Source of the DNA: an uncultured bacterium
GTDB lineage: Bacteria > Bacillota_I > Bacilli_A > RF39 > UBA660
Direction: 5' to 3'
Length of the DNA stretch: 64,000 bases
Assembly: GCA_947169285.1 (NCBI GenBank)
Contig: CAMVPB010000001.1
Location: 77,226 to 141,225 of the forward strand
In this document: positions 9,043 through 53,711 of the stretch, in pieces
Numbering within the stretch: position 1 is the stretch's first letter
How the letters are laid out: the number at the start of each line of letters is the position of its first letter
Translations under genes and position numbers: made by a program
The notes under the pieces: generated by a model
Database searches by the model: none
The model's input: only the letters and a program-made list of their open reading frames with translations
Told to the model about the DNA's origin: nothing

Positions 9043-9339
9043 TTATTCTTTTATATCCATAGAACTATCATTCCATACAATATTAGAATAAATCTTTCTA
9101 TTATCTTTCTCATACTTAATAAATATTAAATTCTTATTGCTTAGTTTTGATAAACTTTTTGATATTGTTCTTGTTGATAATTCTAATTGTTGTGATAAGT
9201 ATTTATTAGTAGCTATACACACTCTTTTTATACACAGAGATACAATCATACCCATAACTAATTTATCAGTTGAATTTAGCTCTAATTTCTTTAAATCTGA
9301 TAATGGTACAATTGCATATTTCATATAATTACCTTTCAT
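9043..9339 (-). CDS. small winged-helix DNA-binding protein (HTH_36-like; candidate iteron/centromere-binding or replication regulator)
   Basis: 98 aa; ...VPLSDLKKLELNSTDKLVMGMIVSL...ATNKYLSQQLELSTRTISKSLSKLSNKNLIFIKYEK...; typical N-terminal wHTH of phage/plasmid replication proteins; iteron arrays lie in its upstream region. Confidence 0.5.
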   Translation of the reverse strand: MKGNYMKYAIVPLSDLKKLELNSTDKLVMGMIVSLCIKRVCIATNKYLSQQLELSTRTISKSLSKLSNKNLIFIKYEKDNRKIYSNIVWNDSSMDIKE

Positions 9340-9430
9340 CCATATATAATCCCCCTTTCTTTTGACAATAAAAAAGACCTGTGTTTCTTTTCACAAGTCC
9401 AATTCAAATCAAATAATTCTAAATGGATTT

Positions 9431-9467
9431 ACTTATAATTCTTCCACTTTACCATATCTTACCATGA
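9431..9467 (+). repeat. ~37-bp direct repeat copy 1 (ACTTATAATTCTTCCACTTTACCATATCTTACCATGAC); copy 2 at ~9678..9714
   Basis: 34/37 identical copies 247 bp apart, each followed 16 bp later by a five-unit 12-bp tandem array. Confidence 0.8.
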
Positions 9468-9483
9468 CTTTTATTGTTTGTAA

Positions 9484-9543
9484 ATGCAAATTTTCATGCA
9501 ATTTTATATGCAAGATGAGATGCAACTTCACATGCAAAATATT
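9484..9543 (+). repeat. tandem array A: five 12-bp repeats with ATGCAA core (ATGCAAATTTTC/ATGCAATTTTAT/ATGCAAGATGAG/ATGCAACTTCAC/ATGCAAAATATT)
   Basis: Exact 12-bp periodicity of ATGCAA at ~9484, 9496, 9508, 9520, 9532. Confidence 0.85.
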
Positions 9544-9730
9544 TGTAATTATTTCTTTGGAATACCGCATAAATACTAAGGAAATAAGCTTTTCATTATT
9601 TTAATTTTTTGAACAAAAATAATAGTCAAAAAATATAGTAAAAATATTTTTACTAATTTTTTTAAAATGATAAAGATGCTTATAATTTATCCACTTTACC
9701 ATATCTTATCATGCTTATAGGCACTTGTAC

Positions 9731-9790
9731 AGGAAAATTTTCAGGAAGTTTGAGAGGAAGTTATAGAGGAAGTATAAGAAGAAGTATCAC
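9731..9790 (+). repeat. tandem array B: five 12-bp repeats with AGGAAG core (AGGAAAATTTTC/AGGAAGTTTGAG/AGGAAGTTATAG/AGGAAGTATAAG/AAGAAGTATCAC)
   Basis: Exact 12-bp periodicity at ~9731, 9743, 9755, 9767, 9779; same position relative to direct-repeat copy 2 as array A relative to copy 1. Confidence 0.85.
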
Positions 9791-9939
9791 ATACACTTTT
9801 ATATGAAGTTTGTTTACATAAAAATTGGTATAAAGCTCTATAAATATTTATTAAATTGGTCTTCATTAATTATAATTATTTTCAAATTTTATTAGCAAAA
9901 AATGTATAAAAAAATAGAGGGTAATATCTTTAAAAATTA

Positions 9940-10548
9940 TTAAGATATAATATTGTATCCCTCATGCAAAATATATTTTTTACCATTGTATGCAAGCGCA
10001 TATTCTTCTGTTATATATTCACCTTTCATACATCTAATATAAAAATCTTCTAATTTGCTCTTATTTTGCTTTAAAAATTGTAATATTTTTTTTCTTTCTT
10101 TTACAGAAAATATATCTTCAAATTTAACGGAGTCATTTTTCATCTGTGTCATTGTGCTTAAAACAATTCTTACAAATTGCTTCTTTCTATAAGAATATAT
10201 ATGAACATGTGGTCTATTATGTGGTTCGCCATTGTTTACTCTTATTATAGCAATATCGTCAAAATCACAACCAGCACCTATTCCATATACATATAATAGT
10301 TTTATTTTTTTAAAATCATAATTAAAATTTTTTAAAAACTTTAACAGTTTAAAATCTAGTCTTGCTTTTTGCTCGACACCATTATGTTCAAAAGCAAACA
10401 ATGAAATCAAATTATCGCTTTCATCTTCTTTAAAAAGATCATTGTGTATTGAATCATACAAATCTTTTATTAACGTATTATTATCACAACTATACTTGTA
10501 TTCAAAAACTCCATCATTACGCGTATATATTTCAAACTCTAATTCCAT
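9940..10548 (-). CDS. hypothetical protein with DUF4160-like segment (..GEPHNRPHVHIY..)
   Basis: 202 aa; central NNGEPHNRPHVHIYSYRKKQF resembles the PPHfHv core of DUF4160; last gene of the UDG-containing minus-strand cluster. Confidence 0.3.
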   Translation of the reverse strand: MELEFEIYTRNDGVFEYKYSCDNNTLIKDLYDSIHNDLFKEDESDNLISLFAFEHNGVEQKARLDFKLLKFLKNFNYDFKKIKLLYVYGIGAGCDFDDIAIIRVNNGEPHNRPHVHIYSYRKKQFVRIVLSTMTQMKNDSVKFEDIFSVKERKKILQFLKQNKSKLEDFYIRCMKGEYITEEYALAYNGKKYILHEGYNIIS

Positions 10549-10646
10549 TCTTATTTATATTCATCCCATCCTAACACTTTGTGTGCCTTCATATAGTAAA
10601 TAATTACTAATTTCAATAAAATACATTTGAAAGCATCAAACTTGAG

Positions 10647-11174
10647 CTATCTATTTAGATTTCTTACTAATCTTTTTACTCTATCTTTACCCAATTCAAG
10701 ATTTTCTTTTTGAATTCTTTCGCTATTTTTATGAACACTGAAATTAAATTTTTCTCTAGTTATTTCTTCCGAATACATTTGCTTTAATTCATCAACCTTC
10801 TTTACATATTCGATAGCCTCTTCATCTGTCATTTTATTTAAATAGTCGGCCGCATCTTCTATGGATACTCTTTCAAATGTTTTAACAATTAATTTTCCTT
10901 TTTTGATTATTCTTAATTTTGCAGCATCTTCTATAGTTGATGCATAACTATGTGGTAACATAGAAAATACTGGGGTTCCGGTCACTATATCTTTTCCAAT
11001 AATTACTGTACTATATTCATCAGGATCAAATCCAAAAGCGCTACACTCGCAAGAGCCATAATACCCTTTATCTTTTTTCAGTACATATCTATATTCAATT
11101 AAAAGATCAAAATTCTTATCTCCACCTAAAATATTACATTTTCCATAATACTTTTCAAACATAAGTTCCTCCAA
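10647..11174 (-). CDS. hypothetical protein
   Basis: 175 aa ORF, no recognisable motif; 2-bp gap to upstream ORF. Confidence 0.4.
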   Translation of the reverse strand: MEELMFEKYYGKCNILGGDKNFDLLIEYRYVLKKDKGYYGSCECSAFGFDPDEYSTVIIGKDIVTGTPVFSMLPHSYASTIEDAAKLRIIKKGKLIVKTFERVSIEDAADYLNKMTDEEAIEYVKKVDELKQMYSEEITREKFNFSVHKNSERIQKENLELGKDRVKRLVRNLNR

Positions 11175-11175
11175 A

Positions 11176-11718
11176 TTAATTATTTTTTTTCATTTTTCTA
11201 GTAAATGATTGTAGTTCAACTTCATCACATTTACTATAATCTTCATTTTGAATTGAAAGATCAACAAGAGTTCTTAATTCAAAATCATCTAAATCTAAAT
11301 GATATTTTTTAAATTCTTCATCTATTTTAACAATTTCAGCAATTACATCATGAGCTTCTTTAGAAATTAATTTACCATCGTTATAATCTTCTAAAGATAA
11401 ATTAAATAAATCCTCAGACATTTGTAAGCTTAACTTTTCATTAAGTGCTATTCTCATATTAAATAGTTCTCTTAAATTAGAGTATTCTCTCTCAGTAATA
11501 ACACCTGTTTCTTGTAATCTATTAATTTTATATACTTGAATAATATCTTTATAGGTATAATCAATATAATTAGGCACACAAACATCTCTTTTATAATCAT
11601 CATCTTTAACAACTCTATAGCAGTCAGCGCCAACTTTAGTTGATGATAATCCCCCTCTTATTCTAAGACTTATATAATCAAACATGTCTTTTAAGAATTC
11701 TTTCTCATTATTATCCAT
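11176..11718 (-). CDS. hypothetical protein
   Basis: 180 aa ORF, acidic, no recognisable motif. Confidence 0.4.
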   Translation of the reverse strand: MDNNEKEFLKDMFDYISLRIRGGLSSTKVGADCYRVVKDDDYKRDVCVPNYIDYTYKDIIQVYKINRLQETGVITEREYSNLRELFNMRIALNEKLSLQMSEDLFNLSLEDYNDGKLISKEAHDVIAEIVKIDEEFKKYHLDLDDFELRTLVDLSIQNEDYSKCDEVELQSFTRKMKKNN

Positions 11719-48339: not shown

Positions 48340-48368
48340 AAACTTCTAAATTAGAAGTTTTTTTATGC
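48340..48368. terminator. bidirectional terminator AAAAAACTTCTAAATTAGAAGTTTTTTT
   Basis: Hairpin between convergent permease and ABC-2 genes. Confidence 0.65.
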
Positions 48369-49973
48369 ATTTATTTCATTAAAAATTTTAGTACCTTTAT
48401 TCTTTAAGTATGATATTAAAATAACACACAATATTATTCCAACTAATAAAGTTCCTAATATTGATATATCTATTGATGTTAATGCAAGAATTAATACCAT
48501 AATACCAGCATTTATCCCTATTAAAGCAAATCCTAACATAACAGCTATAAATGAACTCATACTTTGTTTAACTACTTCTGTATCATTATCAGCATCCATC
48601 TTCGGATATTTTAGATTAGCTATTATACCTACTAAGCTAGATATTAATGGATATACTATAGAACACATTATTAATAATAACATCTCAAATATATTTAAAT
48701 TAAATCTAATAAATAAAATTATATCTCCTACTAATAAGAAAGAAAATGAAATTAATACAGTAGTTAAAACTTTAGCTAATATTATTTTAAATGGTTTAAC
48801 GGGTAAACTTTTTAATATATTAAAAGATCTTCCTTCTAAAGATATCATAGAACATGTCATAGATGATGTGAATGAAGAAGCAACTATCAAAATAAATATT
48901 ACAATTGGTATATATGATTTAATAGTGCTCACTGTAATTAATGATTCTTCATTTATTAAAGATGCAGCAATACTATCAAATTTAACTACTAATAGTATAC
49001 TTCCTATTAAGAACAAAACTAAACCAAATGTAGCATTAGCAACAAATACTGGAGTATTAATTATTCTATTTAATTCTTTTTTAATAATAGATTTTATTAC
49101 ACTATTTTGTTTAATTTTATATTTACCATTATTATGAGATATACTTACTGATTTAACATTAGAATTTATTTTGAAATAAAACTTACTTAATAATAATATT
49201 GATCCACCAAATAATAGTACATTTATTAAAATAAATTTAAATAATTCTAATATGTTAAAATCTCTAACCAATCTTATATAAGCAGCGGCTGGATAATATA
49301 GTTTAGTAATAAATCCATTTATTTTATTAGCGTTAATTACTAAATCTTCAACTAGATTATCTATATTAAATGAGACATATAACATAGACAATGTAAATAT
49401 CATAACTATTATTATTTGAGCAATATTTTTATATTTAAATTTAGATGAAGAATATGCAGAAATAAATCCTATTACAGAAGATATAACTATCGGAATTATA
49501 GGAAGTAATAATAGCATCAATAATGAAACTATATAATATGAAACTTCTACATTACCATATCTAATATATGCTACCATGGCTGGTAACATAAATAACGCAT
49601 TATAAACTACTTCAAATAAATAAAACTTAAATATTCTAACAAACAATATTGTAGATTTTTTAATAGGTAAAGAAAATAATAAATTATCATCTTTAGTATT
49701 AAATAAAAGACCACCCGATTTATATATTCCCTCAACTAAAGTTAACATAAATGATACAAGTACAAATAGCGTTAATGCAACGTACTCTAAATTTGCTTTA
49801 GAAAGAGGTTCCATTATCATATTTGCGTAACTCCATACTGAGAAAGAACAAATAATAAATAATACTATTGGTAAAACAATTTTAGATGACTTTTTTTCAC
49901 TTTTACTTTTAATTTTAAATAATTGCATATTGCTTGACATACAAGCTTTTAATAGAGATATTAATTTTTTCAT
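48363..49973 (-). CDS. ABC-2-type transporter permease-like polytopic membrane protein
   Basis: 536 aa, >10 TM; paired with ATPase downstream. Confidence 0.55.
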   Translation of the reverse strand: MKKLISLLKACMSSNMQLFKIKSKSEKKSSKIVLPIVLFIICSFSVWSYANMIMEPLSKANLEYVALTLFVLVSFMLTLVEGIYKSGGLLFNTKDDNLLFSLPIKKSTILFVRIFKFYLFEVVYNALFMLPAMVAYIRYGNVEVSYYIVSLLMLLLLPIIPIVISSVIGFISAYSSSKFKYKNIAQIIIVMIFTLSMLYVSFNIDNLVEDLVINANKINGFITKLYYPAAAYIRLVRDFNILELFKFILINVLLFGGSILLLSKFYFKINSNVKSVSISHNNGKYKIKQNSVIKSIIKKELNRIINTPVFVANATFGLVLFLIGSILLVVKFDSIAASLINEESLITVSTIKSYIPIVIFILIVASSFTSSMTCSMISLEGRSFNILKSLPVKPFKIILAKVLTTVLISFSFLLVGDIILFIRFNLNIFEMLLLIMCSIVYPLISSLVGIIANLKYPKMDADNDTEVVKQSMSSFIAVMLGFALIGINAGIMVLILALTSIDISILGTLLVGIILCVILISYLKNKGTKIFNEINA

Positions 49974-49974
49974 A

Positions 49975-50679
49975 TTAACCCTCTAATTCTAAGAACACTT
50001 TTTCTAGAGATTTATCACCTTTTATTTGCTTCATACTGCCAACTTTAATTAATTCTCCATTTTTGATAATAGCTACTCTAGAACATAATTTTTCAGCTAC
50101 ATCCAAAATATGAGTTGAAAAGAAAATTGTTTTACCTTCTTTAATCATTTCCTTCATAACTTCTTTAATATCGTAAACAGCTTTAGGATCAAGACCTACA
50201 AAAGGTTCATCCATAATTAATATCTTTGGATCATGAGCAAGAGCAGATATAATAGCTATTTTTTGCTTCATTCCATGTGAGAAAGAATTAATAGTATCGT
50301 TTAGATTATTCTCTATTTCAAATAATTTAGCATACTTACTAATATTCTTTTGCCTTTCTTCAATGGAAACGTCATACATATCACATATAAAATTAATAAA
50401 ATCTATAGCTTTCATATTTTCATATAGCTCAGGATTGTCCGGAACATATGCCATATCTTTTTTACAAGCAATAGGATCTTCTTTTATAGATTTACCGTTA
50501 ATTAAAATATCACCTTCATCAAAATCATGAATACCAACAATAGATTTAATTAATGTTGTTTTACCTGCTCCATTGTGTCCTATAAAAGCAAATATTTCTC
50601 CATCCTCCACATCAAAAGAAACATCTTTAACTGCTACCTTACTACCATATTTTTTAGTTACATTTTTAATTTCAATCAT
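49975..50679 (-). CDS. ABC transporter ATP-binding protein
   Basis: Walker A GHNGAGKTT, signature FSHGMKQK; start moved to MIEIKNV after GAGG RBS. Confidence 0.85.
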   Translation of the reverse strand: MIEIKNVTKKYGSKVAVKDVSFDVEDGEIFAFIGHNGAGKTTLIKSIVGIHDFDEGDILINGKSIKEDPIACKKDMAYVPDNPELYENMKAIDFINFICDMYDVSIEERQKNISKYAKLFEIENNLNDTINSFSHGMKQKIAIISALAHDPKILIMDEPFVGLDPKAVYDIKEVMKEMIKEGKTIFFSTHILDVAEKLCSRVAIIKNGELIKVGSMKQIKGDKSLEKVFLELEG

Positions 50680-50716
50680 AATTATACCTCTACGTATAAT
50701 TATAACATACATTATA

Positions 50717-51475
50717 TTATTTTTTTCTTATATAAGTTATATTCAATACTATTATTATAAAACTTAAAATTGTTAAAACTATAAAAGCAAAAGTAGGTAT
50801 TCTAGTACCATTACTAGTAAACATATTAGATAGTTTAGGGACTTTTTTATTATAAATACCAATAAAATTGTTTTTAGTTACATTATAATTATCATTATAT
50901 AAATTATTATCACCTTTAGTAGTTAATATTGTGTTATTGCTTTCATTTTTTAAAACCTTTACCACTCTATGAACTATTTCAAATCCATCATTATAATAAA
51001 CTATAATATCGTTTTCTTTAATTTTATTAATATCAACTACTTCATATATTATTGATTCTTTTGATTTGATTGTTGGACTCATACTGTTACTATACATAGT
51101 TGATATTCTACCTTCATATTTTTTAGGAATAATATACCCATATATAGAAACCAATGAAAATATAACAAACATTATGTCAATTACAGCAATAAGAAATAAT
51201 TTAAATACATTAATCTTTCTTTTTTCATGTTTCAATATACTAACAATCGTTTTATTCTCATCTTTTACTTTTTCACCATTTAGTATTTCTAAAACACTGA
51301 CATTTAATTCTTTTGATAACGGAATTAATAATGATATATCAGGTGTCCCCCTTCCAGTTTCCCATCTTGATATTGCCTTTTCAGTTACATTAAGTTTTTT
51401 AGCAAGTTCTTCTTGAGTAAGACCAAGTTCTTTTCTTTTAGTTTTTATTAAACTTCCTATTTTATTTAAATCCAT
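50717..51475 (-). CDS. HTH_XRE DNA-binding domain fused to membrane-anchored SipW/ER-type signal peptidase I (S26) domain
   Basis: N-terminus LIKTKRKELGLTQEELAKKLNVTEKAISRWETG (XRE HTH); TM; SNSMSPTI...ENDIIVY...VHRVVKV...TKGDNN (Ser/His-type S26 motifs); C-terminal TM. Track start GTG at 51490; ATG at 51475 after AAAGGAG. Confidence 0.6.
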   Translation of the reverse strand: MDLNKIGSLIKTKRKELGLTQEELAKKLNVTEKAISRWETGRGTPDISLLIPLSKELNVSVLEILNGEKVKDENKTIVSILKHEKRKINVFKLFLIAVIDIMFVIFSLVSIYGYIIPKKYEGRISTMYSNSMSPTIKSKESIIYEVVDINKIKENDIIVYYNDGFEIVHRVVKVLKNESNNTILTTKGDNNLYNDNYNVTKNNFIGIYNKKVPKLSNMFTSNGTRIPTFAFIVLTILSFIIIVLNITYIRKK

Positions 51476-51563
51476 TTTTTCTCCTTTCACTAAAATTATA
51501 AAAATATGTGTTATATTAAATCAACCTACTAATCGTAGGATTTAAACTTTATACAATGAAGAA

Positions 51564-51592
51564 ACAAAAAAAGTTCGAATAAATCGAACTTT
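51564..51592 (-). terminator. Rho-independent terminator downstream of rpsI (AAGTTCGA-tttatt-TCGAACTT + T-run on minus strand)
   Basis: Seen in sequence. Confidence 0.65.
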
Positions 51593-51597
51593 TCATA

Positions 51598-52637: not shown

Positions 52638-53711
52638 ATGGGAAATAAAAAAATTATTGCTATTCTTATCGGTATTTTATTTGCAATTTGTTTTATTTTT
52701 GGAATAGTTGGGTTATTGGAGAGTAAAAAAACTCCACAGGTTAAACCTACAAAAAATTATCAAGTAACTTACAAATATTTTTTAAATGATGTTGAAGTTT
52801 CACAAATGCCAGTTAATCCAAAACAAATAGTAGATGAAGGCAGTTCAGTTGCTTCTAGTATAGAAATGAACGTTGAAGAACTATATGCATTTAACACTGC
52901 AACTTGCACTAATAATGTCACATATACTTGGGATTCTGTAAATTGGAAATTCACACCCTCAAATACAGCTGATTCAACTTGTAGTTTATACTTTGTAACC
53001 ACTTATAATGTTGTAAAAATTGAGGCTACAAATGCCAAAATAACTACTCCTAGTGAAATAAAAGTAAAAAGAGGTGAAGATGCCGTAATCAAAATTACTC
53101 CTAATGAAGGATATGAGTTTGAAAAAGCATCTTGTTCAAATAATGAAGTAGTTGATTGGGATAAAGATGCTAAAGAGTTGATTATCAGAAGCATTACTTC
53201 TGAAACATCATGTAAGGCATCATTTGCAGTAAGCAAATTTAGCGTTGAAGTACAAGTTAATATGGGAAATGGTTCAACAAAAGTAGAATATGAATATGGT
53301 AAAGCAGTAGAAATTAATACTACACCTGCTGAAGAATATGGGAATCCTGAAATAGCGTGTACAAACAATCAAAAAGCATCATGGAAAGATAATGTATTAA
53401 AAATTGATAAATTAACAGATAATACTAAATGTACAGTAACATTTACAAAATTACAATCAAAAACCGAATACATGGCAACATTAAATGTTGGTGATAATGG
53501 AACAATAATATCAGGTGCTAATCCAACAAAAGTTTTAGCTGGTGGATCTATTAACTGGAATATTAGAGTAGCAGAAGGTTATAAGCCTGATGATATAACA
53601 TGTCGTGGAGGTAATGGTGATATTAAACCTTCCGATAACGATTATATTATAACTCTTAAAAACGTTGTAGAAGATGCTGAATGTAGTATAATCTATAAAC
53701 AAGGTGAATAA
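52638..53711 (+). CDS. membrane-anchored surface protein with four ~85-aa Cys-pair repeat domains
   Basis: N-terminal TM; repeats each with C-[TS]-NN...W...C-x-[ASV]-x-[FY]. Confidence 0.5.
   Translation: MGNKKIIAILIGILFAICFIFGIVGLLESKKTPQVKPTKNYQVTYKYFLNDVEVSQMPVNPKQIVDEGSSVASSIEMNVEELYAFNTATCTNNVTYTWDSVNWKFTPSNTADSTCSLYFVTTYNVVKIEATNAKITTPSEIKVKRGEDAVIKITPNEGYEFEKASCSNNEVVDWDKDAKELIIRSITSETSCKASFAVSKFSVEVQVNMGNGSTKVEYEYGKAVEINTTPAEEYGNPEIACTNNQKASWKDNVLKIDKLTDNTKCTVTFTKLQSKTEYMATLNVGDNGTIISGANPTKVLAGGSINWNIRVAEGYKPDDITCRGGNGDIKPSDNDYIITLKNVVEDAECSIIYKQGE

Follow-up and report, generated by a model that had tools for sequence, protein, structure and literature searches.

An XRE-type helix-turn-helix domain fused to a Sec11/SipW-type signal peptidase, with a candidate operator at its own promoter, in uncultured Bacillota

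We analysed a 64-kb stretch of contig CAMVPB010000001.1 (assembly GCA_947169285.1), hereafter called the window, from an uncultured bacterium of the RF39 lineage of Bacillota. One of its genes codes for an XRE-type helix-turn-helix (HTH) domain fused to a membrane signal peptidase of the S26B type, and it is followed by the genes of an ATP-binding cassette (ABC) transporter. On balance, we consider it somewhat probable that the fusion is an accessory Sec11/SipW-type signal peptidase carrying its own membrane-tethered autoregulator. Two lines of evidence are central to this proposal, the conserved architecture of the protein and a conserved palindrome next to its promoter. No description of an HTH-signal-peptidase fusion was found in open-access papers and bioRxiv. 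We regard the fusion as a rare, apparently undescribed variant of the known membrane-tethered regulators, not as a novel type of system.

The initial annotation, made from the sequence alone, had proposed a canonical XRE HTH at residues ~10-70, joined to a signal peptidase with the motifs SMSPTI, DIIVY and VHRVV and with the Ser/His dyad of SipW and Sec11, not Ser/Lys. Our analyses bear out each of these assignments: a single open reading frame (ORF) codes for the HTH, a transmembrane (TM) segment, an S26B domain and a C-terminal TM segment (Table 1; residue numbers refer either to the 252-residue protein starting at the ATG or to the 257-residue ORF starting at GTG). The NCBIfam model TIGR02228 for signal peptidase I of the archaeal and endoplasmic reticulum type matches residues 106-251 with 66.4 bits, above its curated cutoff of 51.85, and the bacterial S26A model scores weakly. 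Sequence searches of the PDB retrieved human SEC11C and SEC11A (E ~1e-6, residues 90-248) and XRE repressors (residues 7-75). The motifs SNSMSPTI, NDIIVYY, IVHRVV and TKGDNN...D are present, with the Ser in SxSMxP, the Asp in GDNN..D and, at the position of the general base, the His of HRV in place of the S26A Lys. Residues S136, M137, P139, H174, G193, N195 and N196 show no variation among 28 full-length homologues, and D194 and D200 reach at least 90% conservation. This conservation of the catalytic residues indicates that the S26B Ser/His/Asp machinery is intact and under selection. By its profile match, its catalytic residues and its predicted topology, the fusion is assigned to the S26B signal peptidase family. 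With an HTH_3 domain and two TM segments in one polypeptide, it is also by definition a transmembrane transcription regulator, the definition being a DNA-binding domain and at least one TM segment in the same protein (PMC10269533).

Hydropathy analyses detected two hydrophobic segments at residues ~88-117 and 223-251 (252-residue numbering). Six Lys or Arg residues precede the first of them (TM1) and the protein ends with RKK, so that, following the positive-inside rule, both termini are predicted to be cytoplasmic, with the HTH inside and the peptidase outside, as in the normal topology of SipW and Sec11. The AlphaFold model, obtained with the 28 homologues (mean predicted local distance difference test score 88.5), agrees with this arrangement. 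It is composed of a five-helix HTH, a long helix encompassing the linker and TM1 (residues 78-124), a beta-rich domain and a terminal helix (residues 233-256). Foldseek matched the HTH half to DNA-bound SinR and P22 c2 and to the 434 repressor, with template modelling scores of 0.85-0.89 and root-mean-square deviations of 1.1-1.4 A, and the C-terminal half to human SEC11A/C over ~150 columns. A polar residue is found in the middle of TM1 in all 28 homologues, Asn in 25 and Asp in three of them. At the cytoplasmic interface of TM1, Lys97 is invariant and Trp96 near-invariant.

The fusion thus resembles SipW, Sec11 and the archaeal S26B enzymes in the Ser of SxSMxP, the His of HR(V), the Asp of GDNN..D, the N- and C-terminal TM segments and the extracytoplasmic active site, and it differs from them by the ~90-residue cytoplasmic XRE HTH added at its N terminus. 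It is not a SipW orthologue: its score with the SipW equivalog model NF046067 is 51.4 bits for a cutoff of 190, and no tapA- or tasA-like genes adjoin it. Pfam searches of the neighbouring genes in the window and in loci L001, L003, L005, L006 and L085-L088 detected no TasA-, TapA- or camelysin-like protein and yielded no nearby substrate of the SipW type. The analogy with SipW and TasA drawn in the initial annotation is not supported by these results. SipW of Bacillus subtilis is reportedly bifunctional, as Terra et al. are said to have described in 2012, and we know of no DNA-binding domain in SipW.

Searches of 5.8 billion proteins identified ~41 clusters at 90% identity that have the whole architecture (252-284 residues, 85-98% coverage), and 27 aligned full-architecture homologues are 35-96% identical. 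They originate from uncultured gut or rumen Bacillota, described as 'Bacilli bacterium', 'uncultured Tenericutes' or 'uncultured Clostridium', and one of them is annotated just as 'signal peptidase I [Bacilli bacterium]'. The identical protein is present in several independent sources. A frameshift separating two genes, or homologues with the HTH and the peptidase as independent ORFs, had been envisaged at the outset. Instead, the ~41 clusters from many samples have one continuous ORF, and the closest homologues of both halves are fused. After the fused proteins, the next matches are hundreds of HTH+VanZ proteins with only the HTH in common, up to 83% identical. With the peptidase half as a query, fused proteins rank first, followed by stand-alone peptidases of 150-190 residues at 32-42% identity. 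HMMER was run exhaustively on 1.84 billion representatives at 50% identity and collected 2,435 relatives of the peptidase half, and five of the best 150 of these have the fused layout, all five confirmed as HTH_3 + S26.

Genome contigs were also searched with the full alignment. This search was driven by the HTH patterns and mostly returned HTH-only relatives, which then served for the operator statistics given below; only L005 and L006 were fused. A metagenome scan with a five-sequence alignment of the peptidase provided six further fused loci. No full-length copy was found in 50,697 phage records, 72,556 plasmids or IMG/VR. A role in anti-phage defence or a phage origin was considered and rejected, as the PADLOC and PHROGs matches are restricted to generic HTH and P-loop. 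Other N-terminal fusions to SipW-like domains came up in the searches (P0177, P0154, P0160, P0184 and similar). One of them joins a glycosyltransferase-51 domain (Transgly, PF00912) to S26 in 290 residues, and a recurrent class of 340-388 residues has S26 at positions 250-370, preceded by a part of ~250 residues that matches no Pfam model.

The tethering of a cytoplasmic DNA-binding domain by a TM segment is a feature that the fusion shares with BcrR of Enterococcus faecalis, whose HTH belongs to the XRE family, and with ToxR and CadC. BcrR is a membrane-bound one-component regulator of the BcrAB ABC transporter (PMC3968067), and in the genome studied here the fusion is likewise a membrane-bound regulator beside an ABC transporter. 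Unlike in the BcrR-type regulators, the other part of the fusion is a catalytic signal peptidase and not a ligand sensor. In a census of 50,302 transmembrane regulators, HTH_3 is the fourth commonest DNA-binding domain, with 4,523 occurrences; Peptidase_S24 was found in eight of these regulators, VanZ in one and Peptidase_S26 in none (PMC10269533).

The second line of evidence is a palindrome upstream of the fusion gene, abutting the -35 hexamer of a sigma-70-like promoter (Table 1). The CCTAC-N5-GTAGG motif matches the window only there, for 0.17 matches expected. The palindrome is found 62-64 nt before the ATG in the fused loci L085, L086, L087, L089, L091, L092 and L093 (49-96% identity) and also occurs upstream of HTH-only relatives. 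In 25 of 86 loci, the core CTAC-N5-GTAG is present at most 150 nt upstream of the HTH gene, and its density of 1.95/kb in the upstream regions, vs 0.003/kb in the remaining 974 kb, represents a ~630-fold enrichment. Upstream of each of the 11 fused homologues examined (42-96% protein identity), the block CTACGAnnnGTnnGTTG never varies, and the -10 box and the GTTG of the -35 box are conserved; the DNA located 5' of the block is unalignable. The interval between rpsI and the fusion gene ranges from 0 to 4.6 kb and the operator/-35 block stays identical. L007 harbours a perfect 15-bp palindrome, CCTACGATTCGTAGG, from which we deduced the half-site yCTACGA. Recognition helices pair with operator variants, TEKAISRWETGRG with CCTACGA..GTAGG, TDRAISKWENGRG with TCTACGATTnGTTTG and TDKAVSKWETGRS with TCTACC..GGTAGG, and most paralogues of the WERG type are devoid of an operator site. 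Collectively, the conservation of the candidate operator, its fixed position, its enrichment and its co-variation with the recognition helix make a strong comparative case for an HTH that is functional in DNA binding and works at the promoter of its own gene. The membrane-tethered transcription factor envisaged in the initial annotation gains strong comparative support from the same site.

Several observations argue for caution. The co-variation between helix and operator is confounded by phylogeny, and in four fused homologues (L001, L003, L005 and L088) the right half-site is degenerate, GTTTG. The palindrome adjoins the -35 box without overlapping it. It is centred near -43, where class II activators also act, as does lambda cI at PRM, and on position alone positive autoregulation is equally possible. 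The 5-bp, GC-containing hairpin could serve another role, and our scan flagged the palindrome as terminator-like. As for the peptidase, no substrate was identified, and no recurrent secreted-protein gene adjoins the fusion in the examined loci.

The HTH is not restricted to signal peptidases. This HTH-linker-TM module, up to 83% identical and accompanied by the same operator at an unchanged position, recurs in other Bacillota fusions. In loci L007-L084, the partners of this HTH subfamily are VanZ-like polytopic domains, single-pass ectodomains of ~150 residues, multi-TM domains, zinc-ribbon or soluble Cys-rich domains (FYVCPVCGN) and, in L072, an ABC ATPase; examples of this diversity are L072 (1283..), L069, L079, L083 and L007-L013. 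The HTH-TM-VanZ fusions and their kin thus share the module and the operator with the signal peptidase fusion and have VanZ, an ectodomain, a zinc ribbon or an ABC ATPase in place of the peptidase. Because the same module and operator are joined to many unrelated domains, HTH-linker-TM resembles a portable unit by which envelope proteins regulate themselves. The subfamily with yCTAC-N5-GTAGr sites appears to be a large, uncharacterized family of self-regulating, mostly envelope proteins of gut Clostridia and Bacilli. No characterized member was found among its VanZ and other fusions in the searches made.

Table 1. Features of the fusion gene, its promoter region and the adjacent genes (window coordinates)
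Feature	Position	Strand	Basis or remarks
Fusion gene	50717..51475	-	252 residues from ATG: HTH, TM1, S26B peptidase, TM2
XRE-type HTH (HTH_3)	51287..51448	-	Pfam E=1e-16, residues 15-68 (257-residue numbering)
Predicted TM helix 1	51125..51205	-	Hydropathy; AlphaFold continuous helix 78-124
D105 codon (257-residue numbering), mid-TM1	51176..51178	-	Strictly conserved Asn/Asp
Predicted extracytoplasmic S26B catalytic domain	50816..51106	-	TIGR02228 above cutoff; residue conservation; SEC11A/C matches
Catalytic codon Ser136	51083..51085	-
Catalytic codon His174	50969..50971	-
Catalytic codon Asp194	50909..50911	-
Catalytic codon Asp200	50891..50893	-
Predicted C-terminal TM helix 2, then cytoplasmic RKK tail	50729..50803	-	Hydropathy; AlphaFold helix 233-256
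Candidate operator, palindrome CCTACGATTAGTAGG (also written CCTACGAnTnGTAGG), half-site yCTACGA	51525..51539	-	Abuts -35 hexamer
Sigma-70-like promoter of the fusion operon (TTGATT, 18 nt, TATAAT)	51495..51524	-	Promoter scan, 10/12 matches
ABC transporter ATPase gene	49975..50679	-	ABC_tran E=1e-30; ORF as called 49975..50712
Permease gene (536 residues, single polypeptide, ~12 TM, ABC_export/12TM_1 type)	48363..49973	-	PF16949, PF16962; PF09847 on orthologues
Intrinsic terminator of the upstream rplM-rpsI operon	51568..51594	-	11-bp stem then T-run
Presence/absence cassette (operator, promoter, fusion gene)	50683..51565 (883 nt)	-	blastn, window vs L109

The fusion, ATPase and permease genes are three closely packed ORFs, and their span on the minus strand, 48363-51475, matches exactly that of the initial annotation. 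As called, the fusion ORF extends from a GTG start (50717..51490, 257 residues). Nevertheless, the true start is almost certainly the ATG at 51475, because it is preceded by an AAAGGAG Shine-Dalgarno sequence (51481..51487) and agrees with the N termini of the homologues, all MDLNK or MNxEK. The ATPase likely starts at 50679 with MIEIKNV, at which its L086 orthologue also begins. This start lies 37 nt past the stop codon of the fusion gene, and our scan found no terminator between the two genes. Given the short gap and the absence of a terminator, the fusion promoter probably also drives both downstream ABC genes in this genome. Upstream on the same strand, the rplM-rpsI operon is set apart from the fusion promoter by a strong terminator.

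The label 'ABC-2 exporter' of the initial annotation holds in part. It fits the ATPase, which is DrrA- and GldA-like, and the Joint Genome Institute name of the permease, 'ABC-2 type transport system permease protein'. Nevertheless, the NCBIfam models DrrA and GldA, the best for the ATPase, remain under their curated cutoffs, and the permease does not match the ABC2_membrane family. The permease scores 32.3 bits with PF16949 (cutoff 25.7) and 29.1 bits with PF16962, just under the cutoff of 29.7, and it has a PF09847 match in precomputed data. Single-polypeptide type V exporters of B. subtilis, YthPQ, AlbCD, EcsAB and SkfEF, have been described (PMC11466899).

Comparison of the loci showed that the association between the fusion and the ABC transporter is facultative. 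The ABC pair is directly downstream of the fusion gene in the window, in L085 (fusion 70% identical to that of the window, ATPase 96%, permease 96%) and in L091 (fusion 73%, ATPase 94%, permease 98%). In L086, it is directly upstream, in a different chromosomal context (fusion 55%, ATPase 80%, permease 56%). It is absent from L087 (fusion 50%), which is nevertheless syntenic with L086, and from L093, L001, L003, L005/L088 and L006 (fusion 35-52%). Conversely, L109 and L111 have the ABC pair, with a permease >90% identical, and no fusion gene. These two loci share with the window the succession of Dus, surface protein, rplM, rpsI, ABC ATPase, permease, xanthine/uracil permease, acyltransferase_3 and Abi_2 genes. 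The flanks are 93.3% and 95.4% identical between L109 and the window by blastn, and the 883-nt cassette is replaced by a 471-nt flavodoxin-like gene. Overall, the fusion occurs without the ABC pair in seven of 11 distinct contexts with readable flanks. As each is found without the other, neither the exporter nor the fusion depends on its partner. Obligatory coupling is thereby ruled out, and the notion of a peptidase-regulator dedicated to a substrate of the downstream transporter, put forward in the initial annotation, is not sustained. The adjacency of fusion and exporter in two gene orders would be compatible with a loose functional link.

The ABC pair itself is unusually conserved. The ATPase and permease (48363..50679) have 94-98% protein identity between the window and L085 or L091 and 95% nucleotide identity with L109. 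This is as conserved as rpsI and rplM (96-99%), with other membrane proteins of the syntenic block at just 61-65%, and it suggests unusually strong constraint or recent transfer among these species. We also considered that the fusion might evolve unusually fast and rejected the idea, as 70% identity to L085 is mid-range for this genome pair and the ABC pair is the outlier. The stretch that separates the rpsI terminator from the ABC ATPase gene (window 51491..51597) is an insertion hot spot. Inserts between rpsI and the fusion gene amount to 0 kb in the window, ~1.5 kb in L085 (an ORF of 298 residues and a flavodoxin-like gene), 1.6 kb in L092, 2.2 kb in L090 and 4.6 kb in L091, and in L109 and L111 the slot is filled by the flavodoxin-like gene alone. 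Regarding L086, an operator upstream of the ABC genes was sought and is absent: the sole inverted repeat, GGTAGA-GTAA-TCTACC followed by a T-run, resembles the terminator of the upstream gene.

In the mechanism that we favour, the N and C termini of the fusion would be in the cytoplasm and the Ser-His-Asp domain on the outer face of the membrane, where it could remove signal peptides from exported proteins. The cytoplasmic HTH would bind the palindrome CCTACGAnTnGTAGG, probably as a dimer, and the invariant Asn or Asp of TM1 may help to hold the HTH dimer on it. Given a palindrome directly beside the -35 box of the fusion promoter, the HTH would set the expression of the fusion gene. Negative autoregulation is most likely, because the promoter already matches the consensus at 10 of 12 positions and because AyrR, a Staphylococcus aureus regulator discussed below, is an autorepressor; a site near -43 could repress by hindering recognition of the -35 box, but it would suit class II-type activation as well. 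The exporter genes of this genome would probably be driven by the same promoter. Transertion is the general idea behind a membrane-held protein acting on its own promoter. Autoregulation in cis from the membrane is plausible, as co-translational insertion would keep the protein near its promoter.

We rate as unlikely, though attractive for its parallel with the ayrRABC system described below, the possibility that the fusion is a one-component sensor of secretion or envelope stress, i.e. a 'trigger enzyme' in which occupancy by preproteins or signal peptides, or inhibition, alters the oligomerization or the DNA binding of the HTH. Peptidase supply would then follow demand, as would that of the ABC transporter here, as though AyrR and AyrA had been merged with the peptidase. 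The structural and operator evidence for the favoured model fits such a sensor as well. In S. aureus, the XRE repressor AyrR binds a palindrome that overlaps the -35 box of its own promoter, and the ABC operon under its control responds to signal peptidase insufficiency (PMC4542188). The ayrRABC system thereby ties together an XRE repressor, a membrane relay, an ABC transporter and the capacity of the type I signal peptidase (PMC4542188, PMC5727409). The fusion operon resembles it in layout only, with an XRE regulator, a palindrome at its own -35 box and an ABC ATPase and permease downstream. In contrast with the fusion of regulator and S26B peptidase in one polypeptide, AyrR, the AyrA relay and SpsB (an S26A Ser/Lys enzyme encoded elsewhere) are separate proteins; furthermore, the fusion operon has no AyrA-like membrane-relay gene, and the operators are unrelated in sequence.

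The proximity of the ABC pair to the fusion in two gene orders and two contexts (window, L085 and L091 vs L086) is also in line with a sensor. Nevertheless, we found no evidence of signal coupling, and the ABC pair and the fusion are each dispensable for the other. In addition, the same HTH is found on many unrelated domains (VanZ, zinc ribbon, ABC ATPase), so that a generic autoregulatory module fits better than a peptidase-specific sensor. The most specific version, a single-polypeptide sensor of the secretion load in which the state of the active site is transmitted through TM1, possibly via its Asn or Asp, to the HTH dimer and switches its binding to the CCTACGA palindrome, is slightly less likely still. 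If it were true, the fusion would provide the first example of a signal peptidase acting as a 'trigger enzyme' and would correspond to AyrR/AyrA/SpsB in fused form, with processing capacity read into transcription.

Regulated proteolytic release of the HTH appears improbable. It would involve a cut at the outer end of TM1 by the fusion itself or by another signal peptidase, followed by cleavage by a site-2 protease of the RasP type, in a manner akin to RsiV, for which signal peptidase is the site-1 protease (PMC9044953). The invariant, helix-perturbing Asn or Asp of TM1 would suit this scenario, and I116-x-[G/S]118 loosely matches the -3/-1 rule. Nevertheless, there are no conserved A-x-A motif and no polar c-region, the candidate site lies inside the predicted continuous helix 78-124, and a cut there would part the peptidase from its own N-terminal anchor. 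A C-terminal TM segment as in SipW and Sec11 is the normal topology of this peptidase class. As for self-release by the peptidase of the fusion, suggested in the initial annotation, it is disfavoured by the predicted location of the linker between the HTH and TM1 in the cytoplasm, with the active site on the other side of the membrane, and by the lack of a conserved A-x-A after TM1.

It is more improbable still that the HTH does not bind DNA and is a cytoplasmic protein-interaction module, as in RodZ, whose XRE-type HTH binds MreB. Membrane-anchored domains of the XRE fold with non-DNA partners do exist, and HTH_25 proteins rank second in abundance among the classes of that regulator census (PMC10269533). 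Against this possibility, a conserved palindrome at a fixed position of its own promoter co-varies with the recognition helix, and the closest folds are DNA-bound repressors.

We give very little credence to the idea that the fusion is a divergent, self-cleaving HTH+S24 repressor of the LexA or lambda CI type mistaken for a signal peptidase. LexA, lambda CI and HdiR do have the same order of domains, an N-terminal HTH followed by a serine peptidase domain of the same clan, SF; the alignment with phrog_4 (CI-type repressor) extends to residue 184, Peptidase_S24 matches with E=0.018, and a LexA-family plasmid match covers residues 3-160. However, those repressors are soluble, self-cleaving Ser/Lys proteins, whereas the predicted Ser/His/Asp domain of the fusion is flanked by two TM helices and separated from the HTH by the membrane, with an invariant His and not a Lys as the general base. 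The S24 score is 15.2 bits for a cutoff of 23.3, while TIGR02228 passes its own; sequence and fold matches are to SEC11A/C, and the peptidase half alone matches no PHROG. The phrog_4 alignment and the weak S24 match reflect homology at the clan level only. Lastly, an assembly or sequencing artefact joining two genes, in favour of which nothing was found, is ruled out by the identical protein in several independent sources, the ~41 one-ORF clusters and the fused closest relatives of the peptidase half.

The genes that surround the fusion are heterogeneous between loci. In the window, a gene divergent from rplM (52638..53711, plus strand) codes for a protein of 357 residues that starts with a membrane anchor or a signal peptide and has weak matches to immunoglobulin domains of the SpaA and InlB B-repeat kinds. 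Its position is kept in L085, L092 and L109, at just 56-61% identity. It might be a secreted or surface-located substrate, although nothing ties it to the peptidase. Further away, a run of same-strand ORFs (1310..11718, minus strand) opens with an apparent large serine recombinase (534 residues, 'YCRLSDED...') and may be an integrated mobile element. In L003/L004 (3546..9009), the fused protein P0019 of the Bacilli metagenome-assembled genome (MAG) GCA_017477845.1 is part of an apparent conjugative or integrative element; its gene sits between those for a type IV secretion system coupling protein and a tyrosine integrase, and an ORF of 72 residues and an Rce1-like CPBP protease gene follow. 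CPBP intramembrane proteases are often tied to bacteriocin immunity. In L006, from a 'Tenericutes' MAG, a prepilin-type gene (1263..1673; KGFTLIELI, N_methyl E=3e-5) is found 45 nt downstream of the fusion; prepilins are normally processed by PilD-type peptidases, not by signal peptidase. In L005/L088, small N-terminally anchored proteins with a Big_14 domain are encoded nearby, and L088 adjoins helicase and methylase genes.

The significance of the fusion depends on what the HTH does. If it merely provides simple negative autoregulation, the protein would be a modest addition to the catalogue of transmembrane regulators, and the promiscuity of the HTH module, the facultative ABC link and the unsurprising nature of built-in autoregulation all temper its importance. 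Monitoring or adjustment of signal peptidase capacity in bacteria is known in one system only, ayrRABC, in which the relay step is unresolved. On the other side of the balance, the architecture is rare and apparently undescribed, and the candidate operator newly found here is concrete and testable: with one gene and one 15-bp site, the fusion offers a compact experimental handle. It raises the questions of whether a membrane-tethered regulator may act on its own promoter, a point that bears on transertion, and whether the state of an extracytoplasmic enzyme might be read out transcriptionally. Beyond the fusion itself, these analyses define a candidate operator, yCTACGA-N-TCGTAGr, beside the -35 box for a large, uncharacterized XRE subfamily of gut and rumen Bacillota, most of whose members appear to be membrane-tethered.

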